Part shown: positions 1,476 to 20,594 of the stretch, one piece after another | How the letters are laid out: each line of letters begins with the position of its first letter | Numbering within the stretch: position 1 is the first letter of the stretch | Assembly: GCA_041694815.1 (NCBI GenBank) | Contig: JBGFSC010000040.1 | Span: 1 to 27,976, forward strand | Direction of reading: 5' to 3' | DNA: 27,976 bases | Source of the DNA: Elusimicrobiota bacterium | Lineage (GTDB): Bacteria > Elusimicrobiota > Elusimicrobia > UBA1565 > JACRDR01 | Notes under the pieces: model-generated | What the model saw: only the letters and a program-made list of their open reading frames with translations | What the model was told of the DNA's origin: nothing | The model's database searches: none | Translations under genes and position numbers: made by a program

Positions 1476-1564
1476 AGGATAAGGGAGTACGTGGGCAGCG
1501 CCTGAGGCAAAGGACCTAGATGGAACAGCCGAAAGGCCTATTACTGACTAGGCCTACTCGTCCT
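1476..1564 (-). promoter_or_regulatory. WD40 gene promoter with arrayed TAGGNC-N4-GNCCTA operator copies
   Basis: Minus-strand copies TAGGCCTTTCGGCTGT (1540-1525) and TAGGTCCTTTGCCTCA (1518-1503), extra TAGGCCTA at 1549; -10 TATCCT at 1481-1476. Confidence 0.6.
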
Positions 1565-2699
1565 TGCCGGCCTTAACTCGTGGAGGCTTTCCGGCGGCGA
1601 GCCAATTAAGATATTCCTGGATGAAGGGATCGAGGTCTCCGTCCATGACGGCCTGGATCTGGGAGGTGTCGTAGCCAGTGCGCAGGTCCTTGACCATCTG
1701 GTAGGGCATGAAGACGTAGCTGCGGATCTGATGCCCCCAGGCGATGTCGCCCTTCTCGTCGTAGTGCTTCTCCAAGGACGAGCGTTTCTTGTCGAGCTCG
1801 ATCTGGTAAAGCCTGGCCTTGAGCATCTTCATGCAGTTGACGCGGTTCTGCATCTGCGAGCGCTCGGTCTGGCAGCTGACGATGATGCCGGTCGGGATGT
1901 GAGTAATGCGCACCGCCGTCTCCACCTTGTTGACGTTCTGCCCACCGGCCCCGCCCGAGCGGAAGGTGTCGAGCTTGATCTCGGAATCGGAGACCTGGAT
2001 GTCAATATTCTCCTCGATGTCGGGCAGCACGTCGCAGGAGGCGAAGGAGGTGTGCCGCCGCTTGTTCGCGTCGAAGGGCGAAATGCGCACGAGACGGTGC
2101 ACGCCGACCTCGCCCTTCAGGTAGCCGTACGCGTAGCTTCCGCGCACGAAGGCGGTGACGCTCTTGACCCCCGCCTCCTCGCCCTTGAGTATGTCGGTGA
2201 TGACGAACTGGAAACCCTTTCGCTCGGCCCAGCGCATGTACATGCGCAGCAGCATGTCGGCCCAGTCGCAAGCCTCGGTGCCTCCGGCTCCGGCGTGCAG
2301 GCTGAAAATGGCGTCGAGGTTGTCGAACTCGCCGGAGAGCTTAAGCCTCGTGTCCATGTCGGCGACCGTCTTCTCGAGATCGGCGAGTGAAGCGGAAATT
2401 TCAGCCAGCTCCCCAGCGTCCTGGATCTCAACCGCCAGCTGCAGATGGGCTCCGATATCCTCGCGGCCACGTTCGGCCCGGTCGAACTCGGCGATTAGCT
2501 TCTTGAGATCATTGAGCTCCTTCGACTTCTTCTTCGCCTTGGCCGAATCCGCCCAGAAGGAGGGATGCGCGGCCTCCGTTTCGCGCGAGAGAACCTCGCG
2601 GCGCTTGAGCGGAAGATCGACGAGCTTGGCCATGCGCTCGAGCGCACCCCGGCATCGCTCCAGCCGTTCCTCCGCCTCTTTAAACGTGGGTTCCGCCAC
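1554..2699 (-). CDS. prfB: Peptide chain release factor 2 (continuous ORF, no frameshift)
   Basis: SPF anticodon motif (RISPFD), GGQ motif, [20 protein letters not shown] start with GGAGG. Confidence 0.97.
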
Positions 2700-3606
2700 C
2701 GATCCTCCAAGTCTCCGCCAGCCTCAGGGCGACCTTCGCCGTCTGCGCGTGCAGCGCCGCGGTCTCTTCCATGCTCGAAGCGTAGCCGCCGCCCAAGGTC
2801 AGGACAATGGGAATGGAGCGCGAAAAACAGCCTTCGAACACGGCCTCGTCGCGCCGCGCGATGCCATCGGCGCTCAACTCGAGCTCCCCGAGCATATCCC
2901 CCGCGTAGACGTCCACGCCGGCCTGATAGACCACCAATTGGGGACGATGCGAGTCCAGCGCGGCGGGGAGCTGCTCTAACAATATTTTAAGATATTTGGC
3001 GTCGCCCGTGCCCGCCTCCAGGCCGATATCGAGGCTGCCCGGAGGCTTGCTGAGAGGATAGAGATTCTCCTGATGCATCGAAAAAGTGAAGACGGCCGGC
3101 TCCTCGGCGAAGATCGAGGCGGTGCCGTTGCCTTGATGCACGTCAAGGTCCACGACCATGGCCCGTTCGATGCGGCGCTCCTTGAGCATCTGGCGGACGC
3201 CGCAGGCGATATCGTTGAACACGCAAAAGCCCTCGCCGTGATCGGCGAAGGCGTGATGCGACCCTCCCCCGAAATGCAGCCCTAGCCCCTGCTCGAGCGC
3301 CAGGCGGCAGGCGAGCAGGGTCCCCGAGACCGAAAGGGCGTGAGCCTCGGCCACCTCCTTCGAGCAGGGCAACTCCAGCAAGGTCTCTTCCTCAAGGGTG
3401 AGCCGTCCGGAAAGGGCACGATCGACCCAATCGGCGGTATGCACCAGCAGCAGCTGCTCGCGCGCCGGCGGTCGGGGCTCGACGCCGTCCTCCGGGCTCA
3501 ACAAGCCTTCGCCCAAGAGCAGGCGCGCGGCCGCCTCGAATTTCCTTGTCGGAAAAGCGTGATCACCGATATCGATGCTGTATTTAGGAGAGAAAACGAA
3601 ACGCAT
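2680..3606 (-). CDS. Histone deacetylase family (Zn-dependent) deacetylase
   Basis: [24 protein letters not shown] and GGGY motifs. Confidence 0.93.
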
Positions 3607-3612
3607 GGCCCG

Positions 3613-4407
3613 TCAGTTCTCGAGCCGGAAGTAGATGGCTTGGCGGACGGTGACCTTCGTCGGGACCGAGGCCTTGAGCGCCGGCTCGAAGCGCATCAAT
3701 TTGGCGACCGAGCGCGCGGCGGCGTCGAAGGAACTCCCGGCCGACTGGAGTATCTCGACGGCGCCGACGATTCCGTCCTCGCGTATCTCGACGCCGACGA
3801 TCACCTGCGCCTCGCGGCCGGCCCGGCGCTCTAAGTCTGGATAAAAGCGCCGGAGATTGGCGCGCACCTCCTCGCGGTTGATGAGCCGTGGCGGCCTATT
3901 GACGATAGCCTCCCCGGTCCCGGGTCCGCCGCCGGAGCCGCCGCGCCCGAACTGTCCGCCGGGGCCGCTGCCGTCCGGCGCCGTGAAGGCAGGAGGCGGA
4001 GCCGGGGCGCCACCACCTTCCAAGGTCGGCTGCTCGAGTTTCTTGGTTTCCGGCGTGGGGAGCACCCATTCTTTGGGTTTTTCCGAAGGAGTTCCTTCCT
4101 GGGCCGAGACGTTGGGAGCCGGGGGCTTGGGCTCCGGCGCGGGGGGCGCCAGGACGGGGGCCTTTTTCGCCGACTCGGGAGCGGGGGCGCCCGGCACGGT
4201 GCCGGGCAGCCTGGTGTCCCAGGGCGCGCGGGGCCGAAACGGCGTGCGGATATCGACTTCGATCGGCTCCTCGAGCAGGCGGCTTGGGTGTCCCTGCCAG
4301 GAAAGCGCGGCCCAAATCAAGGCGTGGGCGCCGAACGACGCCGCGAAGGACGCCTCGAAAAGCGAGAGCTTGCGCCCGCGCAGAGCCGGGGATTTTAGGG
4401 AAATCAT
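3613..4407 (-). CDS. tonB: Energy transducer TonB family protein
   Basis: N-terminal TM with SFGAH (S-x3-H), Pro/Gly-rich linker, C-terminal YP...VEILQSAG...FEPA domain. Confidence 0.88.
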   Translation of the reverse strand: MISLKSPALRGRKLSLFEASFAASFGAHALIWAALSWQGHPSRLLEEPIEVDIRTPFRPRAPWDTRLPGTVPGAPAPESAKKAPVLAPPAPEPKPPAPNVSAQEGTPSEKPKEWVLPTPETKKLEQPTLEGGGAPAPPPAFTAPDGSGPGGQFGRGGSGGGPGTGEAIVNRPPRLINREEVRANLRRFYPDLERRAGREAQVIVGVEIREDGIVGAVEILQSAGSSFDAAARSVAKLMRFEPALKASVPTKVTVRQAIYFRLEN

Positions 4408-4805
4408 TTCCGCCGTACTTCGAGCCCGATCCGCTTGACGCCGCTGGTCTTGATCAAGTCCAACAGGGAGATCACCTCCCCGTAGGGAATAGCCTCATCG
4501 GCGGCCACGGCCACGTGCGCCGCCGGCTGCAGCTCCACGACGCGCGCGAGCTCCCGAGCTAAGTCCGGCTCGCTCAGTCGCCGGCCGTCCAAGCGCAGTT
4601 GCCGCTGGGCGTTGAACTCCAGGCGCATCGTCTGCGTCGCCACCCGTTCGGACTTCGCCGCCTTGGGCAGGCTGACGTTCATGGCCTTCCGCTGCATGAG
4701 CGGCGCGCTCGCCATGAAGATGATGAGCAGCACCAGGACGATGTCAACGAGCGGCGTGACATTGATGCCGGTGATCGTCTCGGAATCATTGGGTGAGACG
4801 TGCAT
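4404..4805 (-). CDS. exbD: Biopolymer transport protein ExbD/TolR
   Basis: INVTPLVDIVLVLLIIFM; AADEAIPYGEVI. Confidence 0.93.
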   Translation of the reverse strand: MHVSPNDSETITGINVTPLVDIVLVLLIIFMASAPLMQRKAMNVSLPKAAKSERVATQTMRLEFNAQRQLRLDGRRLSEPDLARELARVVELQPAAHVAVAADEAIPYGEVISLLDLIKTSGVKRIGLEVRRK

Positions 4806-4808
4806 CGG

Positions 4809-5429
4809 CTATTTCGCTCGGACTTTAAGCCGCGCGAGCAGGAGTCGGTTCATCGATTCGGCTCCCGCGAAGAGATCTTTTACCCGCTTCTGAAAATAGT
4901 TATAGGCCATGACGCAGGGAATGGCGACGAAAAGTCCCACCGCAGTGGCAATGAGAGCCTGCGAGAGGCCCTGCATCACCGCCTCGGGGCCCGCGTCGCT
5001 ATTTTGGGCCAGATCGTGGAAGGCCTTGATTACGCCCAGAACCGTCCCAAATAGTCCGATAAACGGAGCGTTGTTGCCCAAGGTTCCGAGGATCAAAAGC
5101 CTCAGCTCTACCGCCTGCCGGCCGGCCAGCCCCTCGGCGGCCATGTGTTCCTCGACCGCTGAAACCCCGTTGCCCGCCTGAGCCAGCCCCGCGCGAAGCA
5201 TTTGGCTAGCCACGCCGGGAACGTGAGCAGCCTCCTTGGCCACGTTGGCGAGATCATCGTCGGCGAGACGAGCGGCGACGCGCTGCCTTAAATCCTCCAG
5301 CCAGCGCAATTCGCGCAGCAGGACCGTGGCGCGCTCGATGATGATGGCTCCCGCGAGCACCGACCCCAGCAGCAGCAGATAGATGACCCAGTCTCCGCCC
5401 GACAACGCCAAGGAATTAAGCGCGCTCAC
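4809..5429 (-). CDS. exbB: MotA/TolQ/ExbB proton channel protein
   Basis: APFIGLFGTVLGVIKAF; GLSQALIATAVGLFVAIP. Confidence 0.93.
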   Translation of the reverse strand: MSALNSLALSGGDWVIYLLLLGSVLAGAIIIERATVLLRELRWLEDLRQRVAARLADDDLANVAKEAAHVPGVASQMLRAGLAQAGNGVSAVEEHMAAEGLAGRQAVELRLLILGTLGNNAPFIGLFGTVLGVIKAFHDLAQNSDAGPEAVMQGLSQALIATAVGLFVAIPCVMAYNYFQKRVKDLFAGAESMNRLLLARLKVRAK

Positions 5430-7006
5430 TTTGTCTTCCCCCCTTTGCCCGCAGCATAGAGGCGCAGCAAGGCCGCGCAGAATTCGGCCCGCACGAAGTT
5501 ATTGCGCTCCTGCGGAAGATTCATGAGCAGGCGTGGGAAATCATCCGCCGTGCCGAACTCGCCGAGATAACGGATCGCCAGGGCGCGCACCAGCCAGTCG
5601 AAATGGATCCAATGGCGTATGAGAATGTCCCGCCCGGCGGGGTCCCCCATCCGCAGCTGGAGAGAGGCCGCGTACACCTGTAGCGCGGGCGAGAGGTCCA
5701 TCCGCGCCACGCTGCCGATATCGCCGAGAGCCTCGGGTTGTCCCCAGGCGTAGAGCGCCTCCACGGCGCCCCATCGGACGGTGATGTCCTGGCTCAGGAG
5801 AGCCTCCTGAAATACCCCGCGATCCTGCGGCTTCTTGTCGTAGGCGATGGCCATCATCGCCGCCGCGCGAACCTGCGGATTGGTCCCCGAGCGCGCCACC
5901 TTGAGTATGCGCTCACGCAGCAGCAGATCGCTGGTGCCGGCCAAGCCTTCGGTCAGCAGGAAGCCGAGCTCGGTATAACGAGTCTTAAGCTGGAAACCTC
6001 GGGGAGAGCTCAAGGCGTTGAGGGCCTTGATTGAAGGGTCATCGAGCTGCTCCACGGTGGGGCGCGCCTCGGCCTTATTCTCCAGCAGGCGCATGAGGTT
6101 GATATTGATGCGTCCGTCGATGAGCGCGGTGGCCGGGATCTTAAGGCGCGGCGCCGTAACGACGAGAGGCTCGAGCTCGTATTCGTTCGCCGCGGCGCCG
6201 GGCGCGGGGGCTCTTGGCGGCGGGGCTCCCGGCACCGGCTGGTACTTGGGGAACAATTTGAGCCCCGCGATCGCCATCTCGGCGATCACGAAATCGTTGG
6301 TCTGCTCGCGCGACATGCGGTCGAGCATGAGCGTGTAATCGCGGCCCTGGCCCAGCTCTCCCAGATAGCGGGCCGCCATGGCCCGCGCGATCCAATCGCC
6401 GCTGTCGAGCTCCTTGAGCAGGAATTCGCGGCCCTTGGGGTCGCCGCGCCTCAAGAGGGCCTGCGCGGCGTAGATGCGCACCACCGGCGAGAGGTCCTGC
6501 CGGGCGACACGCTCGAACTCGGCCTTGGCTTCGGGCGGTCCCCAATTCTCCAGACCCTCCAAGGCGGCAAAGCGTATGCCCGGGTCTATGTTGATCAGGG
6601 CTTCCTGGTAATATTTGAAGTATTTCGGCTCCTTGCGGGCCGCCACCGCGATCAGGGCGACGGCGCGTATCTCGGGATTGCGCTCCCAGCGGGCCTGTTC
6701 GATCATCTGGGCCTTCAGGCGCGGGTCCTGGGCAACGGCCAGGCCCTCCGAAAGGGAGGCCCCAAGATGGGTATAACGGGTGCGCAGCTGGTATCCCGAG
6801 GGGGTGCCGAGCTCGATGATGTCCTTGAGCGCCGTTTCCGTGAAGTCCGAGCTGGCGGGTTTGGTGTTATCCTTGACGTTTAGGAGGTCCAACAAAGCCG
6901 AGACAATCTGCGGGTCGTACTCCATGCTGGGCCCCGATTGGACCCCGGTCTGGGCGCGCACATGGCAGGCGGTGGCGAGCAGGCAGGACAGGAGAATGGG
7001 ACGCAT
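5426..7006 (-). CDS. Exported HEAT-repeat protein made of two duplicated halves
   Basis: Signal peptide MRPILLSCLLATACHVRA; HEAT-like repeats (IRAVALIA, VRWGAVEAL). Start moved to 7006 because -10 TACAAT (7023-7018) is too close to ATG 7015. Confidence 0.85.
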   Translation of the reverse strand: MRPILLSCLLATACHVRAQTGVQSGPSMEYDPQIVSALLDLLNVKDNTKPASSDFTETALKDIIELGTPSGYQLRTRYTHLGASLSEGLAVAQDPRLKAQMIEQARWERNPEIRAVALIAVAARKEPKYFKYYQEALINIDPGIRFAALEGLENWGPPEAKAEFERVARQDLSPVVRIYAAQALLRRGDPKGREFLLKELDSGDWIARAMAARYLGELGQGRDYTLMLDRMSREQTNDFVIAEMAIAGLKLFPKYQPVPGAPPPRAPAPGAAANEYELEPLVVTAPRLKIPATALIDGRININLMRLLENKAEARPTVEQLDDPSIKALNALSSPRGFQLKTRYTELGFLLTEGLAGTSDLLLRERILKVARSGTNPQVRAAAMMAIAYDKKPQDRGVFQEALLSQDITVRWGAVEALYAWGQPEALGDIGSVARMDLSPALQVYAASLQLRMGDPAGRDILIRHWIHFDWLVRALAIRYLGEFGTADDFPRLLMNLPQERNNFVRAEFCAALLRLYAAGKGGKTK

Positions 7007-7030
7007 GATTTCCATTCATTGTACAAAATA

Positions 7031-7143
7031 TGGGTCTTTAGGCCCAAAAGGATAGGACTTTCGGGTAATCTCCCTTAGGCCTAATGCCTTCTATCGGATT
7101 GGGCCCTTCGCTTCTTTTTCTGCGCCGCCATAACGGCTATATT
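7031..7143. promoter_or_regulatory. Divergent promoter region with four operator copies
   Basis: TGGGTCTTTAGGCCCA (7031), TAGGACTTTCGGGTAA (7053), TAGGCCTAATGCCTTC (7076), TGGGCCCTTCGCTTCT (7100); plus-strand -10 TATATT at 7138. Confidence 0.6.
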
Positions 7144-7176
7144 GACGCTCGCAAGGTTACTGCTAAAGGAGAATTA

Positions 7177-7554
7177 ATGAAAAGTTACCTGTTCGCTGTA
7201 GCCATCGTGACTTTTGCCGGTTCTGCCTTCGCGAGTGGAAGCGATGAGTTCGAGCGACTGCTGCGGGAGAAGCTCGAGCGCGTCAAGGAATTGAACGAGC
7301 ATGGTCCGGCAGACCAACTCAAAGAAATCCGCCGCTTCCAGGAGCGCTATGGCCATAGCATCGCTAAGGTAAAAAGCGTCAACGGGGGAATTGGTATCAC
7401 GAAGCGCCAGGGGCGTTGGGCCATTAAGATCAACATTGACGGTAGCCGCGATATCGAGGAAGTCCGCGCCGAGCTGTTGGAGAAGTTCCCCGCCCTCGCT
7501 GATACGCCCCACATCCTCGAAGTGGTTGGTCGCATAAAGGCCCGAGGAATATAG
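7177..7554 (+). CDS. Small secreted hypothetical protein
   Basis: SD AAAGGAG before ATG 7177; signal peptide MKSYLFAVAIVTFAGSAFA. Confidence 0.8.
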   Translation: MKSYLFAVAIVTFAGSAFASGSDEFERLLREKLERVKELNEHGPADQLKEIRRFQERYGHSIAKVKSVNGGIGITKRQGRWAIKINIDGSRDIEEVRAELLEKFPALADTPHILEVVGRIKARGI

Positions 7555-7590
7555 ACGCCCCAGAACGACTATTCCCGAAAGGAGAGTCCT

Positions 7591-8028
7591 ATGACTAAAA
7601 TCGTCCTTACGCTGGCAGCCGTTGCAATATCTTTTCTGAGCTCAGCCGTCGCCGCTGATTATGTCCCAAAAAACGCCTTTGAAAAAGAGGTCTTGAGCCG
7701 CGACTTGGATCCGGCGGCGCGCGCAACGCTCGAATTGTTGTTCCTAATCCGGGGACGAGTTCAGGACCCGAAGATCTTCGAGATTAGGGGAATCCCGATT
7801 TTGTCCGCCGTGCCCTGGATCACAAGGGATCATCCGACGCCGATCACGATAAATGTCATGATTCCTGATCGGGAGGAATCGCTGCAAGCCGTCCGCGGTA
7901 TTCTAAGGGACTTGAAAGAATACGGCGTTATCGAAGCGGATGAGGCGGTTAAAAAACAGACGTACGCTACGGCTGAGTTTGTCTATAAAGGATACGCAAT
8001 TTACTTTACCAGGGTCACCCTTCATTAA
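7591..8028 (+). CDS. Small secreted hypothetical protein
   Basis: SD AAAGGAG; signal peptide MTKIVLTLAAVAISFLSSAVA. Confidence 0.8.
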   Translation: MTKIVLTLAAVAISFLSSAVAADYVPKNAFEKEVLSRDLDPAARATLELLFLIRGRVQDPKIFEIRGIPILSAVPWITRDHPTPITINVMIPDREESLQAVRGILRDLKEYGVIEADEAVKKQTYATAEFVYKGYAIYFTRVTLH

Positions 8029-8084
8029 CGGCACCGCTTAAGAGCGACGTTGAGCCTCGCTGGGCTCGGATCTCTTGAAGCCCT

Positions 8085-8609
8085 TTATGGACCGCCGACC
8101 GTTTCTTCTACCCTGAGACGGAAAGTCTTCGGATCAACGGCGGGATAACGATAGAGAAAAGGCTCGATACGGTTAAAATGTTCCAGGAGCCTTTGCCGAT
8201 CGATCAGGCCCCGGCGTAGCATCTCGCGAACGTCTTCTAGATCCTGTTGGTGACTACGTTCGATCTTGGCGAGCGCCTGCGCGTAAAGATCGTAATGGTA
8301 GTACGAGATCTTCCCTTCGCGGCCAATGGAGCGGCTCCGTTGCTCCCAACCCTCCAGCGGGGGAATGAACTGATCGGGAGAAGCCAATTCGACGTTAATT
8401 TTTAAGGACTCTTTAAGATGCGGGATCGCGTGCAGCAATGCGTCCTGCTCAGGCACGAATTTCACGTCCACATCGATCGTGCCGTGGCGCCATCCTTCGA
8501 GAACGGCCGTGGCGCCACCGGTAAAATACACGTTCGCTTCCTCGGTCGCTGCCGCGCCTAAAGCCCTCATAAAGCGGCGCAGCCGCTCGGCGTCGGTCAG
8601 CTCGCGCAT
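8085..8609 (-). CDS. DUF6036-like nucleotidyltransferase (putative TA component)
   Basis: VYFTGGATAV...TIDVD (GG...DxD), ALAKIER..QDLED. Confidence 0.8.
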   Translation of the reverse strand: MRELTDAERLRRFMRALGAAATEEANVYFTGGATAVLEGWRHGTIDVDVKFVPEQDALLHAIPHLKESLKINVELASPDQFIPPLEGWEQRSRSIGREGKISYYHYDLYAQALAKIERSHQQDLEDVREMLRRGLIDRQRLLEHFNRIEPFLYRYPAVDPKTFRLRVEETVGGP

Positions 8610-8881
8610 TCCAGACTTCGCTCGAAGCTCACCAGGCGACGAATCAAGGCGTTATAACGCGAATGCGCCGAATCGGGGTCCTCATTACGTAGATGTTCGT
8701 AAAGGCGATGTTCCGCGGAAGGGATCGGTCGGGGAATGATGACTCCGCTGCGGCGCAGTCTGGGTTCGCCAATGGACACAAGCAAGGACTCGACGGTTTC
8801 ACGGCCGGAATCAAGATCCGCCATTCCCTGCGTTACTAAATTGCCCCCCGGCAACCCTCGAAAGTCCAACTTCTTCCCCAT
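8597..8881 (-). CDS. Small partner protein of the nucleotidyltransferase
   Basis: 94 aa from ATG 8881 (MGKKLDFRGLPGG...YNALIRRLVSFERSLE); overlaps the NTase start; TGCTATACT lies 8 nt upstream. Confidence 0.7.
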   Translation of the reverse strand: MGKKLDFRGLPGGNLVTQGMADLDSGRETVESLLVSIGEPRLRRSGVIIPRPIPSAEHRLYEHLRNEDPDSAHSRYNALIRRLVSFERSLECAS

Positions 8882-8936
8882 GATTAAAAAGTATAGCAGG
8901 CGCCTTATAACGCCGCAACGCTCGAATATTCCCGAC

Positions 8937-9779
8937 TCATTCGACCGGCCCCTCCCCAGGCATTCGACGATAAACTCGATACGGCGGCTTGTCGTCCTTA
9001 AAAGAAACAAGCCTAAGGGGAGGAACCCGAACCTCATCGGCAATTTTCTCCAGGGATACCGCTAAAAGAACGCCGGACTGATATACGTTAACCTTGAGTG
9101 TCTTCAAGCCTTCAATGGAAGACAGCCAGGCCTGCACTTGTTGCGACGCGGGGGAATGAGCGTCGTCATCGTGCTCCTCAGAATCAAGAATTTTCGTGAG
9201 AAGCAAAACGATATAAAGCCTTCCCGATTTCTTCAGAATCCGTCCGTATTGTTGGAGAACAACATCAAGATGAGGCGTGTAGGAAGCGGCCCCGTAGACG
9301 TCCGTAATGATATCGGCCCGAGGAAATGTATCGGGCGCGTATTCCTCGATCGGTCTACCTTCTCGATATTGAAATAGGACTCCCCATCGCTGTATCGCCC
9401 TGTCCAAGAGTTGATCGGCTGGTTTCTGAACGGAGACCGCCACGCAGACAGGGCCTACCTGCGTCTTCTCTAGTAATTCGATCTGAGCCTTGGCCGAGCC
9501 GGCCCCGACGTCAATCCAGACTCCTCTAGGCGTGATCCTCCTCAAATCGGCAGAAAAAAGATCGCCAAAAGCCATCTCATACTGCCAAAGCCCGCGGGAG
9601 ACCTCGAAATCATTTTTTTTAATCCTATCGCGATTCTCGGCTATTTCCCGGCCGGTGTCAGCGATCGTTTGGCGAAGAGCATGGGGCCATTCGCTCCAGA
9701 CGGCCTTTTCAAATTGGGAAGCCCCAATATCGAATGCGCCGCCGAAACAAATAATAAAAAGGATGATGAAACGTTTCAC
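8937..9779 (-). CDS. Class I SAM-dependent methyltransferase-fold protein with N-terminal signal/anchor
   Basis: Motif I VWIDVGAGSA, ADIITDVYG, RILKKSGRLYI; hydrophobic N-terminus MKRFIILFIICFGGA. Confidence 0.75.
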   Translation of the reverse strand: MKRFIILFIICFGGAFDIGASQFEKAVWSEWPHALRQTIADTGREIAENRDRIKKNDFEVSRGLWQYEMAFGDLFSADLRRITPRGVWIDVGAGSAKAQIELLEKTQVGPVCVAVSVQKPADQLLDRAIQRWGVLFQYREGRPIEEYAPDTFPRADIITDVYGAASYTPHLDVVLQQYGRILKKSGRLYIVLLLTKILDSEEHDDDAHSPASQQVQAWLSSIEGLKTLKVNVYQSGVLLAVSLEKIADEVRVPPLRLVSFKDDKPPYRVYRRMPGEGPVE

Positions 9780-9854
9780 AACTTTAGTTTAATCGGTGGA
9801 CCAAGGTAAGTCCAAGAAAGTTTCTATTAATAAAATTATTATTGTATTTAAATG

Positions 9855-11354
9855 CTAATTTGAGATCCTAAACTGGCTCTTGAACGCCGCCTGTAAGGCT
9901 GCTAGCATAAGACAAACCCATCCGAACCAGTCACCATATCGTGAATAGAATGATCCTTGCGAGAAGTCAGCCACATGGATAGTTGCCTTTAATATCCCGG
10001 CGCTGAGCAGCGCCTTTTGCGCCACGATCACGCCATACGGATCGATCACCGCCGAGATTCCGGTGTTTCCAGAACGCAGCACGATGGCGCGGTTCTCGAT
10101 CGCACGAAAGATATTCGTATAAAAGTGCTGGTAAGGTCCCCACGTATCCTTGTACCAGCCGTCGTTGGTCAGATTGGCCAGGATTCGGCTTCCCAGTTCG
10201 ACCGAGACCCGGCTGAGTCTTGGAAAAACGGCCTCATAGCAGATACTGACTCCGACGGGACCTAACGGCGTTGAAAGCGGCGCCTGCCGCTCTTCTCCAG
10301 CGTCGAAATCGCCCAATTGAGACAGGATGCCGATGTAGGGCTGCAGCCAAGCCCGCATCGGCACGAATTCCCCAAAGGGTACCAGTTGCCGCTTGTAATA
10401 GACCCCCGCCGTTCTGCCTTCGGGCCCGATTAGGACCGCGGCGTTGTATTGCGCCCGCTCCGTACCGCTGGCGGCCCCGAGCAATTGATGCGCGCGCAGT
10501 CGGCGAGACCAAGCGGCGGCCCAGGCAAAGAGCTCGGGCTCCTCCAGCCAACCGGGCAAAGCCGATTCCGGCCAGACGACCAGGGCCGGCTTTTCTTTAG
10601 CGGCCTCCGTCAACAGATGGTCGAATATCTTACGAATGGTCCCAATTGAGGATTCATCCCATTTCCGATATTGATCGATGTTCGGCTGAAGGAATACGAC
10701 CGTGTGGCCTTTCGCGGACTCCGCTCGATGAGCCAGCGTCCAGGCGCCGTAACCCCACCAAGCGGCGCATAGCGCCGCCGGCAAGGCGAGGGGTCGAAGG
10801 CGCCTTTCTTCGAACCATCGAGCCAGGTGGGCGTTGGCGAGGACGATTAGAAAACTCAGGGCATGCGGCCCGGCCCACGCGATCCCTTGCAGCCAGGCGA
10901 GATGCCTCCACTGAGTATAAGCCAACAAATCCGCCGGAAGGCGCGGGGTCCAGCGCGCGGAGGCGAACTCCAACGCCGCCCAAAGCGCGGCGCAGGCCCA
11001 CGGCCACAAGGGCGCCGGCGTTCCAGCGACCAGCCAACGGATCAGGGCCGTCGCGGCCGCCCATTGCAGCGCGGAGAAGGCGGCCAAGGCGGCCCAGGCC
11101 AGCAGGGCGGCGGGAACGGGAACGCCCGCGAAGCGGCAGGTCGAGTAGATCCAGTAGAGCGCCGTGGCGAAGAAGCCGGCGCCGAAGAACCATCCCAAAA
11201 GCGCCGAACGCCGTATGGAGACGGCTCCTCGAATCGTGTGCAGGAGCGGGGCCAAGGCGAACCAGGCCAAGAAGCAAAGGCCGGGCTTGGGCAGGCAAAG
11301 GGCCAGCAGCGAGCCGCAGGCGAGCCCGGCGGCGGGCGTCAGGCGCCGTGGCAC
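9855..11354 (-). CDS. lnt: Apolipoprotein N-acyltransferase
   Basis: QPNI, VVWPESA, YYKRQLVPFGEF, ICYEAVF, TNDGWY, RAIEN, GNTGIS. Confidence 0.95.
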   Translation of the reverse strand: MPRRLTPAAGLACGSLLALCLPKPGLCFLAWFALAPLLHTIRGAVSIRRSALLGWFFGAGFFATALYWIYSTCRFAGVPVPAALLAWAALAAFSALQWAAATALIRWLVAGTPAPLWPWACAALWAALEFASARWTPRLPADLLAYTQWRHLAWLQGIAWAGPHALSFLIVLANAHLARWFEERRLRPLALPAALCAAWWGYGAWTLAHRAESAKGHTVVFLQPNIDQYRKWDESSIGTIRKIFDHLLTEAAKEKPALVVWPESALPGWLEEPELFAWAAAWSRRLRAHQLLGAASGTERAQYNAAVLIGPEGRTAGVYYKRQLVPFGEFVPMRAWLQPYIGILSQLGDFDAGEERQAPLSTPLGPVGVSICYEAVFPRLSRVSVELGSRILANLTNDGWYKDTWGPYQHFYTNIFRAIENRAIVLRSGNTGISAVIDPYGVIVAQKALLSAGILKATIHVADFSQGSFYSRYGDWFGWVCLMLAALQAAFKSQFRISN

Positions 11355-14023
11355 TTCTTGTATTTCTTGCCGCTGCCGCAGATGCAGGGATCGTTTCGGC
11401 CGATTTTCTGGATCGCGGTCGGGACTGCCGGCGCCGCCTTTTTAAACGGCGAGACCGGCCCCTGACCCTTGCCGTTGGTCGCCTCGGGCTTTTCCGCGCG
11501 CATCACCGGCGGAAGCGTCGGCTCGATGCGCCGGGGGGCCTGGATGCGGAAGAGGTATTCCACCGTCTGCTCGCGCACGCGCCCGAGCATGGTCTCAAAT
11601 AGGGCGAAGGACTCCTTCTGATACTCGACCAGCGGGTCCTTCTGCCCGTAGGCGCGAAGCCCGATCGACTTCTTTAAATGATCGAGATCATAGAGATGGT
11701 TCTTCCAGGCCGAATCGATGATCTGCAGCAGCACCATCTTCTCTAAGTCCTTGAAATCGTAGCCCTTGAACTCCTCGGCCCGCGCGGCGTAGCGCTCGCG
11801 CACCTTCCGGAGCAAATCCTCCTTGAGCGACTCGGAGTCCATCCGGTAGAGCTCCTCCGGCTTCGGCCCCCAGTCGATATCGAAGGTGCGCTCGAGATAG
11901 GCGGCCAGGCTCGTCGCGTCCCAGGCCTCGGGATGCGCGTCCTTGGAGGCCCAAAGCGCGACCTTCTCCTCGAGCTCCTCGTCGATCATGCGCGCCACCT
12001 GATCGGTGACCTCGGCGCCGTCGAGTATTTGGTTGCGCAGGCTGTAGACCACCTCGCGCTGCTTGTTGAGCACCTTGTCGTAGTCGAGGAGCTGCTTGCG
12101 GATGTCGAAGTTATGCGTCTCCACCCGGCGCTGCGCTCCGGCGATCTGCCGGCTGACCAAGGTCGATTCGATGACCTCGCCCTCCTCCATGCCCAGCTTC
12201 TGCATGATGGTCGAGAGCCGATCCGAGCCGAAAAGGCGCATGAGCTCGTCGTCTAGGGCCAGATAGAACCGCGAGGATCCGGGGTCGCCCTGGCGGCCGC
12301 AACGGCCGCGGAGCTGGTTGTCGATGCGGCGGGCCTCGTGCCGCTCGGTTCCCAGGACGTGCAAGCCGCCGACCGAGACCACGAACTTCTGGTCCTCCAA
12401 GTCGGGCGGGTTGCCCCCCAGGATGATGTCGGTGCCGCGCCCCGCCATGTTGGTCGCGATCGTCACCGTGGCCGAGTGCCCGGCTTGGGCGATGATCTGG
12501 GCCTCCTGCTCGTGGTATTTCGCGTTGAGCACCTGGTGCGGGATGCCCTTGGCGCGTAGCATCGACGCCAGCTTCTCGGACTTCTCGATCGAGCGCGTGC
12601 CCACCAGCACCGGCTGGCGCTTCTTCCAGAGCTCCTCTATCTCGGCGACGATGGCATTGTATTTCTCGCGCTCGGTTCGGTAGACGAGATCGGGATGGTC
12701 GATGCGCGCGTTAGCGCGGTTCGGGGGGATCTCGACGACGTCGAGCTCGTAGATCTCCCAGAACTCGTCGGCCTCGGTCATGGCCGTGCCGGTCATGCCG
12801 CCCAGCTTCTTGTAGAGCTTAAAGAAGTTCTGGAAGGTAATCGTGGCGAGGGTCTGGTTCTCCTCCTTGATGGGAAGGTTCTCCTTGGCCTCGACGGATT
12901 GGTGCAGGCCCTCCGACCAGCGGCGTCCCGGCATCAGGCGGCCGGTGAATTCGTCGACGATGACGACCTCCGCGTCCTTGACCACATAATCGACGTCGCG
13001 CTTGTAGAGATGGTGCGCCCGCAGGGATTGCGTGATGTGGTGGACCCATTCGCCCTGCAGGTCGTCGTAGAGGTTGCTCAGTCCCAAGAGCTTCTCGGCC
13101 TTGTTGATGCCCTGCTCGGTCAGGACGGCGGTGTGGTTTTTCTCATCGATGACGGCGTCGAAGCCCTTGCCAAGGTCCTCGCCGCTGTACTTGGACTGGA
13201 TCTCCTCGTTCTCGGTGATGAAGCGGACCTGAAGATGCGGCACGATGCGGTTGATGATCGCGTAGCGCTCGGTGGATTCCTCGGCCGGGCCGGAGATGAT
13301 CAGCGGCGTGCGCGCCTCGTCGATCAAGATCGAGTCGACCTCGTCGACAATGGCGTAATGATTTCCGCGCAGCACGCGGTCCTCGGCGCGCACCACCATG
13401 TTGTCGCGCAGGTAGTCGAAGCCGATCTCGTTGTTGGTGACGTAGGTGACGTCGCAGGCGTAGGCCGCGCGGCGCTCCTCGTTGGACATGTCGTGCTGGA
13501 TGTAGCCGACCGTAAGACCCAGGAACTGGTAGACGGGGCCCATCCATTGGCAGTCGCGCTTGGCTAGGTAATCGTTGACCGTCACCACGTGCGCGCCGCG
13601 CCCGGCCAGCGCGTTGAGGTAGATCGGCGCCGTGGCGACCAAGGTCTTTCCCTCGCCGGTCTTCATCTCGGAGATGGCCCCACCGTGGAGGACCATGCCT
13701 CCGAGCAGCTGCACGTCGTAATGCCTCAGGCCGATGGAGCGCGCGGCCGCCTCGCGCACGGCGGCGAAGGCCTCCGGAAGCACCGCGTCGAGCACTTCCT
13801 TCTCTCGGCGGCGGAACTCCTTGGGCTCCAAGCCCGGCGGGATGGCGGCCAGGCCCGGAGCGATGCGCTCGCGGAATTCCGCCGTCTTGGCCTTCAAGGC
13901 CTCGTCGGATAGCGCCTTATACTCGTCCGCGAGCGCGTTCACCCTGGCCAAAAGCGGCTGCAATTGCTTGATCTTGCGCTCGCTGGGCGAGCCGAAAATC
14001 GAATACACCAGTTTTTGGATCAT
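11339..14023 (-). CDS. secA: Preprotein translocase ATPase SecA
   Basis: MKTGEGKT, DEVDSILIDEARTPLIISG, ATNMAGRGTDI, C-terminal SEC-C GRNDPCICGSGKKYKKCHG. Confidence 0.99.
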   Translation of the reverse strand: MIQKLVYSIFGSPSERKIKQLQPLLARVNALADEYKALSDEALKAKTAEFRERIAPGLAAIPPGLEPKEFRRREKEVLDAVLPEAFAAVREAAARSIGLRHYDVQLLGGMVLHGGAISEMKTGEGKTLVATAPIYLNALAGRGAHVVTVNDYLAKRDCQWMGPVYQFLGLTVGYIQHDMSNEERRAAYACDVTYVTNNEIGFDYLRDNMVVRAEDRVLRGNHYAIVDEVDSILIDEARTPLIISGPAEESTERYAIINRIVPHLQVRFITENEEIQSKYSGEDLGKGFDAVIDEKNHTAVLTEQGINKAEKLLGLSNLYDDLQGEWVHHITQSLRAHHLYKRDVDYVVKDAEVVIVDEFTGRLMPGRRWSEGLHQSVEAKENLPIKEENQTLATITFQNFFKLYKKLGGMTGTAMTEADEFWEIYELDVVEIPPNRANARIDHPDLVYRTEREKYNAIVAEIEELWKKRQPVLVGTRSIEKSEKLASMLRAKGIPHQVLNAKYHEQEAQIIAQAGHSATVTIATNMAGRGTDIILGGNPPDLEDQKFVVSVGGLHVLGTERHEARRIDNQLRGRCGRQGDPGSSRFYLALDDELMRLFGSDRLSTIMQKLGMEEGEVIESTLVSRQIAGAQRRVETHNFDIRKQLLDYDKVLNKQREVVYSLRNQILDGAEVTDQVARMIDEELEEKVALWASKDAHPEAWDATSLAAYLERTFDIDWGPKPEELYRMDSESLKEDLLRKVRERYAARAEEFKGYDFKDLEKMVLLQIIDSAWKNHLYDLDHLKKSIGLRAYGQKDPLVEYQKESFALFETMLGRVREQTVEYLFRIQAPRRIEPTLPPVMRAEKPEATNGKGQGPVSPFKKAAPAVPTAIQKIGRNDPCICGSGKKYKKCHGA

Positions 14024-14039
14024 GGGACGGACTTCCCAC

Positions 14040-14048
14040 AGTATAGCA
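14040..14048 (-). promoter_or_regulatory. Extended -10 promoter of secA
   Basis: TGCTATACT, 16 nt upstream of the ATG. Confidence 0.6.
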
Positions 14049-14094
14049 TTTGGTGCCAGGTATCCACTTTCTACACTTTCTCTACTTTCTTCAA

Positions 14095-14133
14095 CAGGTC
14101 CTAAGACCTACGCAATCTAGGCCCTAGGTCCTA
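14095..14133. promoter_or_regulatory. Two operator copies 23 bp apart
   Basis: CAGGTCCTAAGACCTA (14095-14110) and TAGGCCCTAGGTCCTA (14118-14133). Confidence 0.65.
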
Positions 14134-14135
14134 GG

Positions 14136-14164
14136 TTATCCACCGGTGGATAAGCTGTGGATAA
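14136..14164. promoter_or_regulatory. Cluster of three DnaA boxes
   Basis: TTATCCACC (14136), GGTGGATAA (14145) and perfect TGTGGATAA (14156; reverse complement of TTATCCACA). Confidence 0.7.
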
Positions 14165-15485
14165 CTGCCTTTCCAATGTCTCGGGCCAGGGCCGGCAGGC
14201 TGGGGTCCCGCGCCCCCATGATGAGCACTACGTCGCCGGGCCGGGCCGCCCGGGCTATCTCCTCGGGCAGCTTGCCTCGATCCTGCGCGAAGCGCGCGTC
14301 GCGGCCACCGGCGGAGATAGCGCCGGCGATCTCGCGGGCCGAGATGCCGCGGTCCGCCGTGCCCCCGGCGTAATATATTTCCGGCATCCATAAGATATCC
14401 CTGGGTTCGAGGACGCGGCCGAAGGTTTCGATGAGGGCCTGCCGGTGGAAGCGGGCCGGGGCGAAGCCGTGTATCTGGAATACGGCGAGGAGGCGGCCGC
14501 CCTTTAAATGCGCGGCCTCGACGGCGGCCTCAACCTTGGCGGGATTGTGCGCGAAATCGTCGACGACGAGCACACCGCAGCCCTCGGCGACCTTCTCGAA
14601 GCGGCGCGCGACGCCCCGATAGGCCGAGAGGGCCTCGGCCGCCGTCGGCAGCGGCACCCCCGCAATGGAGCAAGCGGCGACCGCCGCCAGGGCGTTATCG
14701 ACATTATGGCGGCCGGGCAGCGGAAGATGGAATCGGACCCCTTCCAAGGTGAATTCCGAACCTTCGGGGGCTAAGCTCATCGAATTCGCCTTCCCGAATA
14801 GGGAGCTGCCTTTCTCAAACTCGACCATCCCCGGCGAGCCCTCATGGACTAGGAATTCCGCGCAGCGCGACCGGAAGGTCCTAAACATCGGCAGGATTTC
14901 CGAGATTTCCTTATGATCGCGATCGATGTTGAGCAGCACTCCCAGCCACGGCCTATAGCCGACCAGCGTGCCGTCGCTCTCGTCTGCTTCGACGACGAGC
15001 AGGTCCGAGCTCCCCTTGAAGGCGTTTCCGGCGAGCCCACGGTCTTTTAGCGCGAGCAGGGCTCCCCCGGTGATGATCGAGGGGTTTTTGCGCGCATGCT
15101 CGAGTATCTCGAAGATCATCGCCGCGACGGTCGATTTTCCGCTGGTGCCGGCCACCGCGATGGTTCGATGGGCCGCGACGTACTGCGACAGCTTCTCGGA
15201 GCGGTGGAGGATGGGGATGCCCAAGGCCTTCGCCCGGAGCAGGTCGGCGTTATCATCCTCAATAGCCGTGGAGGCGACGACGCGCTCTGGGGGGGTCTCG
15301 AAGGCGCTGCCGTCCTGCGGGAAAAGCCGCACGCCCAGGGCCTTAAGCTGCGCGGCTAGTTCCGAGGCCTGCCCCCGGTCGAAGTTCCGGTCGGATCCGG
15401 TGGCCACGCCCCCCTCCATGGCGTGGAACTGGGCCAAGGCGCTCATGCCGCTGCCGGCCACGCCGACGAAATGGAGCCGTTCCAT
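14136..15485 (-). CDS. murC: Mur ligase, UDP-N-acetylmuramate-L-alanine ligase-like
   Basis: HFVGVAGSGMSALA, AVAGTSGKST, VEADESDG, DDFAHNP, MGA. Confidence 0.85.
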   Translation of the reverse strand: MERLHFVGVAGSGMSALAQFHAMEGGVATGSDRNFDRGQASELAAQLKALGVRLFPQDGSAFETPPERVVASTAIEDDNADLLRAKALGIPILHRSEKLSQYVAAHRTIAVAGTSGKSTVAAMIFEILEHARKNPSIITGGALLALKDRGLAGNAFKGSSDLLVVEADESDGTLVGYRPWLGVLLNIDRDHKEISEILPMFRTFRSRCAEFLVHEGSPGMVEFEKGSSLFGKANSMSLAPEGSEFTLEGVRFHLPLPGRHNVDNALAAVAACSIAGVPLPTAAEALSAYRGVARRFEKVAEGCGVLVVDDFAHNPAKVEAAVEAAHLKGGRLLAVFQIHGFAPARFHRQALIETFGRVLEPRDILWMPEIYYAGGTADRGISAREIAGAISAGGRDARFAQDRGKLPEEIARAARPGDVVLIMGARDPSLPALARDIGKAVIHSLSTGG

Positions 15486-15490
15486 CCGCG

Positions 15491-15940
15491 CTAGGACCCG
15501 TCTTCCCCAAGCGAGGCGATGTCCGCGATATCCCTGGGCCGGCCCGTCGCGAGCTTATTCTTGATCAAGGCCTGCTTGCCGATGAAGAAAACGACCTGCT
15601 CGCCGAAGGGCCCCTTTTGCCGGCTATCCCAGATCTCCTCTGCCGTGACGCCGTCGAGAACCGTGAGCAGATCGATGCGCATGGGCGGAGATCCTAATTG
15701 AATCACCTGGCCCGAGAGAATGTCTTGTTCATTTAGGGATAAGGACTTAAGCCCGAACTCCGCGATGGCGCGCAAGAGGGCCTGGGCATTGGCGGGCGTC
15801 GGGCGAATCCAAATATCGACGTCGCCGGTAAAACGCGGCGCGCCCAGGAAGGCCAACGCGTATGCGCCGACGATCACGTGCTCGACGCGGTTGCGCTCGA
15901 GGGCGGCGAGGAAATCAGCGAAGTCGGGATGCACGTTCAC
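15491..15940 (-). CDS. Nucleotidyltransferase (DUF6036-like, putative TA component)
   Basis: IVGAYALAFLGAPRFTGDVDIW; NKLATGRPRDIADI. Confidence 0.8.
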   Translation of the reverse strand: MNVHPDFADFLAALERNRVEHVIVGAYALAFLGAPRFTGDVDIWIRPTPANAQALLRAIAEFGLKSLSLNEQDILSGQVIQLGSPPMRIDLLTVLDGVTAEEIWDSRQKGPFGEQVVFFIGKQALIKNKLATGRPRDIADIASLGEDGS

Positions 15941-16557
15941 GGCCGCGCCCTCAATTGGACGGCGCGCGCCAACCGTGGCAAGCTCTTATAACCCGACATC
16001 GCGTAATATTGCCGCCTTAAAAACTCCACCGCCGCGACCCGCTCGGCCGGGGATTTCGCGAGCCAAAAATTCAGATCATCCCGCGGATCCTTCTTGGCGA
16101 CGATCCGAGCGGGCATGCGCTCGCGCGTGAGAGGCCCGCCTGGCACCCTCGCGAGTATCGTCTTCAGATACTCCTTGTTGGGCGTCCTGGGATAAACCCG
16201 AATCACCCGAAACAAAAAGCGCTTTTCTCCTAGGCGGAATTCTCCGCCTCGCTTATGATTACAGACAAAGCCGTCGAGCAACGCGGGAGGCTTTAAACCC
16301 GAGGCCTCAAAATGCTCGCGGGATAGAAGCAAGAAATCGTCGGTTTTGAGGAAGGCTCGCACCAAGCTGCGTTGGGAAAATTGAGCTTCTTCCTGGGGCC
16401 GGCAATAAAGCCCTCGCCCGAGCTTACGCACCCAACCGTTATCAACCAAGGTTCTGAGATCCCGATCAACGGCCTTCGAAATTCCTCCCAACTCCTGGCG
16501 GCGATAAACCCGCCCCGGACGCATGGATTCTCTCAATCTCTCGGCGTTTTTGGACAT
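15937..16557 (-). CDS. DUF6088/AbiEi-like wHTH protein fused to a small NTase-partner domain
   Basis: PGRVYRR...VDRDL...GLY..P, LVRAFLK, NHKR.G.F.LG; C-terminal DDLNFWLAKSPAERVAAVEFLRRQ. Start set at 16557 from promoter geometry. Confidence 0.7.
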   Translation of the reverse strand: MSKNAERLRESMRPGRVYRRQELGGISKAVDRDLRTLVDNGWVRKLGRGLYCRPQEEAQFSQRSLVRAFLKTDDFLLLSREHFEASGLKPPALLDGFVCNHKRGGEFRLGEKRFLFRVIRVYPRTPNKEYLKTILARVPGGPLTRERMPARIVAKKDPRDDLNFWLAKSPAERVAAVEFLRRQYYAMSGYKSLPRLARAVQLRARP

Positions 16558-16563
16558 GATCTT

Positions 16564-16597
16564 AGAGTAACATGTTTCATGCAATTTTTCAATTGCA
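16564..16597 (-). promoter_or_regulatory. Sigma70 promoter with overlapping inverted-repeat operator
   Basis: TTGAAA (16592-16587), 17 nt, TACTCT (16569-16564), 6 nt, ATG; TGCAATT-N4-AATTGCA at 16580-16597. Confidence 0.65.
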
Positions 16598-16634
16598 ATA
16601 TTATTTTTCATGCATTTGCTTTGATTTCAGAAGC

Positions 16635-16724
16635 TAGGCCCAAGGACCCCTGCTACCTAGGCCGAAAGAATTTTTCGCGCTAGGTCCTTTGATCCCTGCG
16701 CGAGCGCTTCGGCGGGCTTATCCT
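16635..16724 (+). promoter_or_regulatory. Three operator copies at 23-bp period plus -10 box
   Basis: TAGGCCCAAGGACCCC (16635), TAGGCCGAAAGAATTT (16658), TAGGTCCTTTGATCCC (16681); TATCCT at 16719. Confidence 0.65.
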
Positions 16725-16730
16725 AGCGCG

Positions 16731-17267
16731 GTGAGCCGTTATGCTGTCTGCCTTATTTCGACCGTCGCCCTCGGCGTCTGGGCCCCGCTTAAGGCCGCCG
16801 CACTGGCCGTCGGCGATTCGGTCACGGTGCATTTCAAGGACGGCTCGAGCGTCGGCGGGACCTTGCTCGAGATGGGACCTGCCGTCGCCGTCAGCGTCGC
16901 GGGAAACGCACTCCGCTGGAACCTGGACTCCGTCGCTCGCATTGAATCGACGACGCCCTCGGCTGGACCTCCAATCACTCCCGCGCCTCCCACGTTCTCT
17001 CCGCTCATGAGCCCAGCGCCGATGGGTTACGCCTCCCCGGCTCCGATTTTTGGTTTCGGCTCGGCGCCCGTGACGGTCGTGACCATCGCTCAACCGCTTA
17101 CCCCTCAACAGCAGGAGGCTTTCCTCAAGCAGCAGGAATCCGATCGAGAAGCTCGCCGGAGACAGGTGACGACGCCGGAATCCGATTTTCAATTCAGGCT
17201 GCAGCAGGCGCTCGACCGCCGCGCCCGCGGGCTGCCGTTCGTAGCGACATCGGCGGACAAACAATGA
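16731..17267 (+). CDS. Secreted hypothetical protein (small beta domain, Pro-rich linker, helical tail)
   Basis: GTG 16731 gives signal peptide MSRYAVCLISTVALGVWAPLKAAA, then DSVTVHFKDGSSVGG. Confidence 0.7.
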   Translation: MSRYAVCLISTVALGVWAPLKAAALAVGDSVTVHFKDGSSVGGTLLEMGPAVAVSVAGNALRWNLDSVARIESTTPSAGPPITPAPPTFSPLMSPAPMGYASPAPIFGFGSAPVTVVTIAQPLTPQQQEAFLKQQESDREARRRQVTTPESDFQFRLQQALDRRARGLPFVATSADKQ

Positions 17268-17292: not shown

Positions 17293-17670
17293 ATGAAATA
17301 CGCAATAGCCCTACTAGCGGCCCTGTGGTGGCTTTCCCCGGCCAGCCTGGTCCATGCCGCCGACGCCGCCCAGGCGAGCAAGATCATCGCCAAATGGTCG
17401 CAAGGAGCTCAACTCACAGACGAAGAGAAGAATATTGCCGTCTCACACCTAACAGAAGAGAAGGAGAAGCTAGCCAAGCTACCCCCCGCCGAGTTCCGCA
17501 AGCAGATGCTCAACTCGATCGATCAGATGGCACAAGCGGGTCAGATATCCGAGGAGCAGGTCGCTCAGGCGCGACAATTCATCGGAGCGCTCCCGGATGC
17601 AAAGCTCGCCGAGGCGAAAGAGCAGGCCATCAAGCAGTTCGACATGATGATCAAGCTGATCAAAGGCTGA
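17293..17670 (+). CDS. Secreted helical hypothetical protein
   Basis: SD AAAGGAG; signal peptide ending ASLVHA. Confidence 0.8.
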   Translation: MKYAIALLAALWWLSPASLVHAADAAQASKIIAKWSQGAQLTDEEKNIAVSHLTEEKEKLAKLPPAEFRKQMLNSIDQMAQAGQISEEQVAQARQFIGALPDAKLAEAKEQAIKQFDMMIKLIKG

Positions 17671-20333: not shown

Positions 20334-20594
20334 GTGATCGTCGAACTTGCGGGGCATTTTCAGAAGGGCTACCGCCAATTGCCGAAGCCGATACAAAATA
20401 AAGTCAAGAAAGCCCTCGCTCTATTGGAGAATAACCCTCGCCATCCTTCCCTAAATTTGGAAAAGATCGATTTCGAGCGGGATATATGGTCCGGCCGAAT
20501 TGACCGCTCTTATCGTTTTACCTTCCAGTGGATCCCGGGCGGGATACGGCTTAGAAAGGTCGGCTCGCACGAATACGCCTACCGAAGCCCCTGA
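20334..20594 (+). CDS. RelE-superfamily mRNA interferase toxin
   Basis: FQKGYRQLP, NPRHPSL, WSGRIDRSYRFTF, VGSH; abuts the antitoxin. Confidence 0.85.
   Translation: MIVELAGHFQKGYRQLPKPIQNKVKKALALLENNPRHPSLNLEKIDFERDIWSGRIDRSYRFTFQWIPGGIRLRKVGSHEYAYRSP

Follow-up and report, generated by a model that had tools for sequence, protein, structure and literature searches.

What reads the short palindromes that stand in tandem before genes for predicted exported proteins in an Elusimicrobiota bacterium, and what do they control? The question arises from a stretch of 27,976 nt (hereafter the window; contig C51 of the source genome G000, which comprises 2.77 Mb in 54 contigs), in which a preliminary description noted phased copies of a 16-bp operator, TAGGNC-N4-GNCCTA, and proposed that an activator co-regulates a secretome. 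Our analysis points, with a probability that we put at roughly 80%, to tandem boxes that are the sites of one NarL-type response regulator, which would activate some 70–80 weak promoters, mostly of exported proteins, and to arrays that two insertion sequences (ISs) enter at their promoter-distal edge.

Boxes, promoters and target genes

In the window alone the pattern TAGGNC-N4-GNCCTA does not exceed chance: there are 12 matches with up to two mismatches against 8.8 expected, and 19 of 100 shuffles of the window reach the same number. Across G000 the same half-sites yield 20 exact matches at a spacer of 4 and 0–4 at each of 15 other spacers. A matrix that converged on the non-coding matches of G000 (maximum score 22.1; all box scores below are from it) gives the consensus TRGGHCY-WW-RGDCCYA, which fits better than the form first described. 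The most conserved positions of the 16 are G4 (0.92) and C6 (0.95); no conservation was seen in the flanks when the matrix was trained. Coding and non-coding DNA were separated with a purpose-built hexamer model, and sites scoring at least 14 proved far commoner outside genes (125 non-coding and 39 coding, or 0.39 and 0.016 per kb), whereas each of ten permuted matrices found just 1–5 non-coding matches at that threshold. Strong sites occur in 2/65 convergent, 27/215 divergent and 45/591 tandem gaps.

Spacings between boxes in G000 peak at 23 bp (30 pairs) and 24 bp (31), and again at 46 (15) and 47 (14); a spacing of 21 bp is rare (3 pairs). The 23-bp periodicity proposed for the window thus holds genome-wide, while its placement on one helix face is approximate only, a period of 23–24 bp being 2.2–2.3 helical turns. 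The arrays are real, and they are a feature of the genome rather than of the window. Literature searches that reached few subscription journals returned no published account of the motif or the regulon.

The position of the arrays relative to promoters was defined from 538 oriented sites (scores of at least 12) with no gene model. The hexamer TAnnnT peaks at an offset of 38 bp (40 instances, flanked by 14 and 16 at 37 and 39), with further peaks at 60–63 (15–20 each) and at 84–85 (22 and 24) above a background of mostly 1–7: the three peaks correspond to successive copies of the box, first to third, as seen from a single -10. Among proximal sites 32/99 have TAnnnT at offset 38, and 71/110 arrays have it at 37–39 from one end, with 8/110 having it from both. 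The last copy lies 38 bp before the -10, so that the proximal box covers -50 to -35 and is centred on -42.5; the -35 hexamer is degenerate, the G at -33 being retained in 41/57 promoters. Together these data support the activator-type site adjoining the -35 that had been proposed. An independent sign that the -10 boxes are real comes from start codons, which lie no more than 5 nt from the predicted +1 in 36/82 target genes and 223/1292 control genes picked by the same code.

In G000, 83 array promoters passed the filter. Judged by an N-terminal hydropathy rule (signal peptides are accordingly predicted ones), 60/82 of the first genes encode an export signal, compared with 240/1292 controls; the list includes some wrong picks on the divergent strand, which were counted as misses. 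Exported proteins are therefore enriched among the targets, as was first suggested, but the regulon is not the secretome as a whole: arrays precede 46 of the 465 predicted signal-peptide proteins, a tenth. A Pfam scan of 59 of the 82 targets left 36 without a family. Peptidases among the remainder include Lon, FtsH, a free M41 domain, M16, M28, a subtilase, a trypsin-like protein and a zincin; other families are endonuclease I, lytic transglycosylase, FGE-sulfatase-like domains, an 899-aa AAA protein, TPR and DUF885, and there are some cytoplasmic genes, in all probability picked from the wrong strand. By BLAST, eight further targets belong to one paralogue group with the WD40 protein of the window. 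An array precedes 4/8 proteins that combine an export signal with a Walker A motif, well above the tenth seen overall. Besides Lon and FtsH, proteins of this combination lie at C2:22715, C15:3073, C25:55338 and C9:74299 of G000 (Clp-like and a kinase-like one, by motif only). A search for a second export tag shared by the targets gave weak, uncorrected enrichments (best pattern 12/60 against 67/636), and the idea was rejected.

In five relatives with small genomes the layout recurs ahead of a signal-peptide gene at 12/15 loci sampled; of the 12 genes concerned, just one has a homologue in G000 or falls into a Pfam family. The architecture of the arrays is conserved across relatives; the cargo is not. 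Short boxes being easily acquired as an array, the set of targets would change rapidly.

A candidate regulator and its distribution

No regulator had been noted in the window; a candidate lies elsewhere in G000, at C27:50865-51545. It is the only GerE-domain protein of the genome and is of the NarL/FixJ type, with a receiver (PF00072) and a GerE/LuxR helix-turn-helix (PF00196), both over cut-off. The phosphorylation residues D14, D59, S87 and K109 are present in 113/113 orthologue rows and D13 in 112. Its recognition helix, KTVKNH, aligns with KTVKNY of DosR, and K186, K189 and N190, invariant in 113/113 rows, align with DosR K179, K182 and N183, the residues reported to read bases of the DosR box (PMC13486717).

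The candidate is the last gene of a cassette that consists of an OmpR-type regulator, a single receiver, a dCache kinase (dCache-HAMP-HisKA), a hybrid kinase (REC-HisKA) and the NarL-type regulator itself. This cassette lies behind genes for a secretin, a Tad ATPase and TadB/C-type proteins, and in 25/33 genomes the regulator and the Tad ATPase are 10–15 kb apart on one strand. The Tad ATPase of G000 (C27:38865-41192, 775 aa) is fused to an N-terminal ParA/MinD-like domain, a fusion found at a set threshold in 44/52 genomes searched. Many genomes of the order (families f2 and f3) carry a second copy of the regulator, at 72–85% identity and away from the Tad cassette.

The strict motif pattern is present in 41/41 close relatives and in 131/251 genomes across the phylum: nearly all genomes of families f1–f5, f8 and f11 have it, and none or one in each of f6, f7, f9, f10 and f12. 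Single matches were found in 4/105 genomes of other classes. Motif and regulator occur together: among 146 genomes of the class an exact site is present in 124/130 with a close orthologue of the regulator and in 3/16 without one, and two of these three carry orthologues (72–80%) broken by contig ends. The regulon is real across the class, in most of the Elusimicrobia.

Other readers were considered. Crp/Fnr was rejected, the Crp-type helix-turn-helix being absent from the motif-positive genome G046. An XRE/cI-type reader, an idea first prompted by the 23–24 bp period, which resembles that of phage lambda, was likewise set aside: G046 encodes a cI-like protein, but nothing in G000 matches it. 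The ideas that the regulator acts on its own gene or on the Tad operon were also rejected, no array standing before the cassette or the flp-tad operon.

Insertion sequences and the arrays of the window

Most G000 contigs end in collapsed insertion elements, and two of these elements lie at arrays. The targeting is directly observed, and it is the most surprising part of the analysis. The first element, IS-A, generates a 4-bp duplication, and ∼120 bp of each of its ends is assembled. At one end, a box (score 8.6–21.7) finishes exactly 7 bp before the element at 8/9 junctions (7/8 distinct flanks, C3 and C38 having one flank in common), a register expected by chance at 0.3% of non-coding positions; at the ninth junction a weak copy occupies the same register, with two further copies inward. 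IS-A thus begins where the next copy would be, the start of the last box lying 23 bp back. There is no sequence conservation at the cut site. Two 12-mer matches to IS-A ends outside contig-end junctions (a nested remnant in C49 and a chance match inside secA) were dropped. Searches of the metagenome, order, class and plasmids found no relatives of IS-A; two metagenome matches, and matches with 2–3 mismatches, proved to be unrelated coding DNA. Remnants of IS-A occur within G000: two ends back to back beside a full end at C49:1-150, and a further truncated end at C37:8810-8904.

The second element, IS-B, belongs to the IS4 family. Its 9-bp duplication corresponds to box positions 6–14 at 6/6 junctions in G000, and at each of these a second box (9.8–16.1) lies 23–25 bp inward, an arrangement found at 183/1825 comparable non-coding sites. 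Orientation is identical at all six sites. The terminal CA of the element fills box positions 15–16, and the rebuilt box outscores the empty site in 5/5 pairs (4.4 to 12.2 at the window locus), so that control of the downstream gene would be preserved. At the opposite end of the array a -10 stands at 37–38 at 5/9 IS-A and 4/6 IS-B junctions (two more of the latter have CAnnnT), which indicates that both elements enter at the promoter-distal edge. A sister IS4 element, IS-C, served as control: no box above 6.4 lies near any of its 26 ends in G000.

The same register recurs in other genomes. The IS-B transposases of these genomes form one clade (100/100; 18 rows, partial sequences excluded), and 5/6 elements of the clade (five genomes, from two other families) are inserted in a box at the G000 register, four of them with a second copy at 24–25 bp. 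The flank in G227 is too short for a second copy, and the element in G408 does not fit the register. Among ends of sister IS4 elements 0/34 are in a box at the register, although motif-positive families contribute 17 of the 34; left out of this count were two ends of sister elements, whose flanks fall below 40 bp, and a chance terminal-repeat match in locus L252. A full-length relative in G009 has an identical terminal repeat core and a single DDE transposase that matches NF033592 at 259 bits (cut-off 115), and Y290, R293, E297 and K304, the Y(2)R(3)E(6)K signature, are invariant in 11/11 sequences. With 9-bp duplications and a length of ∼1.28 kb (taken from the G009 relative, the body in G000 being unassembled) IS-B falls within the IS4Sa subgroup, which is described as having ends CA------T, lengths of 1150–1750 bp and duplications of 8–10 bp (PMC2266710). 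IS-B-like transposases are present in 21/351 genomes of the class, and plasmid relatives are at most 43% identical. No published account of insertion into activator arrays was found in the same literature searches, which reached few subscription journals.

One IS-B insertion opens the window. Positions 1–114 are the left end of the element on the minus strand, with the transposase start codon at 26-24 and the remainder unassembled; the same end is found at 7 contig ends. The 9-bp target duplication follows at 115–123 on the plus strand and is common to the 3′ flank of contig C17. The 3′ end of that contig holds the other half of the split box, two further copies and the promoter, the copies standing at 0/23/47 with a -10 at offset 38. 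This fifth locus had been missed; the four arrays listed previously are all there, with every copy where it was placed except a bracketed one at 1549, which is a half-site only (score -1.5).

The first of the four arrays comprises a proximal box at 1503–1518 (12.9) and a second at 1525–1540 (9.7; spacing 22 bp). Its -10, TATCCT, is at 1476–1481 on the minus strand (offset 37), and the near-leaderless target at 249–1466 on the same strand, whose start is 3 nt past the predicted +1, encodes the signal-peptide WD40 protein (Pfam WD40) mentioned above. The second array has four boxes, at 7031–7046 (20.0, the distal and strongest copy), 7053–7068 (6.6), 7076–7091 (10.9) and 7100–7115 (7.4, proximal), followed on the plus strand by TATATT at 7138–7143 (offset 38), a gene for a 125-aa signal-peptide protein without Pfam or NCBIfam family (7177–7554), and a second such gene at 7591-8028. 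The last array has boxes at 16635–16650 (14.7, distal), 16658–16673 (7.4) and 16681–16696 (7.7, proximal); TATCCT at 16719–16724 (plus strand, offset 38) precedes a leaderless gene at 16731–17267 on the same strand, in which the start codon is the predicted +1 and which encodes a 178-aa signal-peptide protein of no family, and a second gene at 17293-17670. The three -10 boxes are as first described, at offsets 37, 38 and 38, and the three genes behind them do begin with hydrophobic export signals.

Two further claims did not survive comparison among genomes. The boxes upstream of secA, which had been taken to place the translocase under the same control, stand at 14095–14110 (15.9) and 14118–14133 (18.7, the only exact match to TAGGNC-N4-GNCCTA in the window) and are not in an activator position, the extended -10 of secA lying at 14048-14040, an offset of 65; of 30 secA loci only that of G000 has an array, and its relatives retain the same extended -10 without boxes. 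Similarly, the 7031 box spans -35 to -20 of the divergent HEAT-ExbB-ExbD-TonB promoter (-10 TACAAT at 7023-7018), which had suggested repression, and a box covers this promoter in 1/27 loci, namely here, with two other loci having one ∼290 bp away. Both links look like local accidents, which may still have an effect in the G000 strain.

Beside the secA array, positions 14060-14165 hold clustered words (at 14060, 14136, 14146 and 14157; two are an inverted pair) that we take to be DnaA-box-like; similar pairs occur at C29 and C49. The window also has three toxin–antitoxin-like pairs: AbiEi-like with nucleotidyltransferase-like (15491-16611), a DUF6036 pair (8085-9043), and ParE-like with its upstream partner (19971-20594). 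These three adjoin array-driven secreted genes, which suggests shared insertion hot spots. Two tandem paralogous signal-peptide-like proteins of 284 and 287 aa, with no Pfam family, occupy 18070-19784, and positions 27859-27976 are the end (TGT) of another multi-copy IS, found at 4 contig ends with its partner end at 3 more and no adjoining box.

Interpretation and relation to known systems

As far as sequence can tell, the reading of the boxes as activator sites is well supported. The mechanism might run as follows. A surface or contact signal would lead the neighbouring kinases to phosphorylate D59; dimers would load cooperatively from the strong distal box to the weaker proximal one; and the dimer centred at -42.5 would recruit sigma-70 RNA polymerase at the degenerate -35, much as DosR does. 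The transposases may read the occupied tandem array, either as protein-bent DNA or through the protein itself, and would enter at the end that RNA polymerase leaves uncovered.

Several observations weigh against the NarL-type regulator as the reader, or against parts of this scheme. No TAnnnT is found at 37–39 in 39/110 arrays, and an exact site is missing from six of the genomes that carry the orthologue. HisKA_3 (PF07730), the usual kinase partner of NarL-type regulators, has no match in G000 or G011, which bears on the phosphorylation route; the matches in G046 and G121 adjoin the paralogous regulator. Because the genomes compared are kin, counts across them are not independent. In addition, some genomes in which arrays are few or absent (G102, G250, G267 and G043) encode homologues, 46–52% identical, that share the KTVKN helix, so that the helix alone does not predict the regulon, and the OmpR-type protein of the cassette probably travels with the NarL-type regulator. 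These last two points favour activator sites that serve another protein, whether the OmpR-type regulator or a factor of some other family, only three DNA-binding families having been searched for candidate readers. OmpR-type proteins, however, recognise direct repeats that recur every 11 bp, and no such period is seen in the spacing histogram, while the palindrome agrees with the DosR and OsdR boxes position by position; we regard a different reader as improbable. Far less probable still is that the arrays are a repeat of the repetitive extragenic palindromic (REP) or miniature inverted-repeat transposable element (MITE) kind, or scars of ISs, with the promoter link secondary. It is true that the arrays have two ISs beside them, much as REP elements have certain others (PMC1525189), and that most targets are not conserved. 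Yet nothing is conserved beyond the 16 bp, whereas such a repeat would be longer than a protein site; the distances to -10 and start codon are fixed; G000 has 110 arrays and only 15 array-side junctions; and the motif is found in most genomes of a class in which IS-B-like transposases are scarce.

For the insertions, a competing account has nearly even odds, if slightly short of them: the transposases read naked or intrinsically bent DNA, selection purges harmful insertions, and the regulator plays no part. Some IS4 subgroups are reported to have conserved target arms (PMC2266710), IS-B has no domain beyond those of its non-targeting sisters, and insertions in proximal boxes could be purged. 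Against this stand the strong second box at every IS-B site in G000, the uniform orientation, and the use of the same edge by an unrelated element with a 4-bp duplication and no conservation at its cut site. Selection against promoter-damaging insertions could in any case add to the pattern, whichever way the transposases find their sites.

A broader reading is doubtful when taken as a whole. It would have a contact signal from the Tad pilus act through one ancient regulator to launch an attack with exported hydrolases and ATP-driven proteases, aimed at a compartment of host or prey that contains ATP, most Elusimicrobia being contact-dependent predators or parasites and two transposon families being guided by the activator to a harmless site that one of them rebuilds. 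Type of cargo and linkage to Tad are what point to predation; Myxococcus and Bdellovibrio may offer parallels. What the boxes already provide is a candidate master switch for a nearly unstudied class: the protein can be named, the site is precise, and a rule lists the targets from sequence alone. The rule brings together, in one Tad-linked programme, many exported proteins that were orphans and the signal-peptide ATPases, Lon and FtsH among them, that were a puzzle. This makes the lifestyle of Elusimicrobia testable. The insertions offer a clean example from nature, in which two families of transposon have converged on an array of activator sites and hit it at base-pair register; were the regulator to guide them, bacteria would have a simple means of directing insertion to sites next to chosen promoters.

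The motif went unrecognised in the preliminary description, and it is not wholly new, given its close match to the boxes of DosR (DevR) of Mycobacterium tuberculosis and OsdR of Streptomyces coelicolor. G4 and C6 of the 16 bp correspond to the two bases of the 18-bp Dev box reported as essential, G5 and C7, and the proximal position is the same, Dev boxes being centred at -42.5 and -63.5 (PMC3177182). The published OsdR consensus scores 13.0 on our matrix (PMC5069765). All three systems combine tandem strong and weak boxes, a proximal box at -42.5 to -43.5 and a K/K/N helix (PMC3177182, PMC13486717, PMC5069765). In contrast, the period here is 23–24 bp, whereas the boxes of DosR lie 21 bp apart and in helical phase; the kinases beside the regulator are of the HisKA type, whereas the partners of DosR are the haem-GAF proteins DosS and DosT; and the targets are exported proteins, with no universal stress protein among the 59 scanned and neither of the two such genes in G000 preceded by an array (best upstream scores 2.1 and 4.8). 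The DosR regulon, by comparison, includes universal stress proteins and dormancy genes and is autoregulated, while the cassette here lacks an array of its own. The candidate is no closer to DosR than to NarL, and closer to VraR. The regulon works like that of DosR at the promoter, yet with its other spacing, kinases and targets it is not a DosR regulon.

DegU of Bacillus subtilis and Listeria monocytogenes has the same KTVKNH helix (7X1K), with K194, K197 and N198 in the recognition helix (PMC9263151), and there is a functional parallel in that phosphorylated DegU controls genes for degradative enzymes; however, phospho-DegU is thought to use direct repeats (PMC9263151), and DegS-DegU has no link to Tad. 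PprA-PprB of Pseudomonas aeruginosa also ties a NarL/LuxR-family regulator to a Tad/Flp locus, but PprB is described as activating the tad genes (PMC3510237), whereas here flp-tad has no array and the output is a set of dispersed exported proteins. With regard to the insertions, ISPpu9, ISPpu10 and ISRm22 likewise enter a repeated intergenic palindrome, the REP element (PMC1525189), and in transposon capture by H-NS a DNA-binding protein of the host guides insertion (PMC11335895), guidance being a proposal in the present case. What sets the present case apart from both is that the target is an activator array, that two unrelated elements enter it, at base-pair register and on the side away from the promoter, and that one of the two restores the site.

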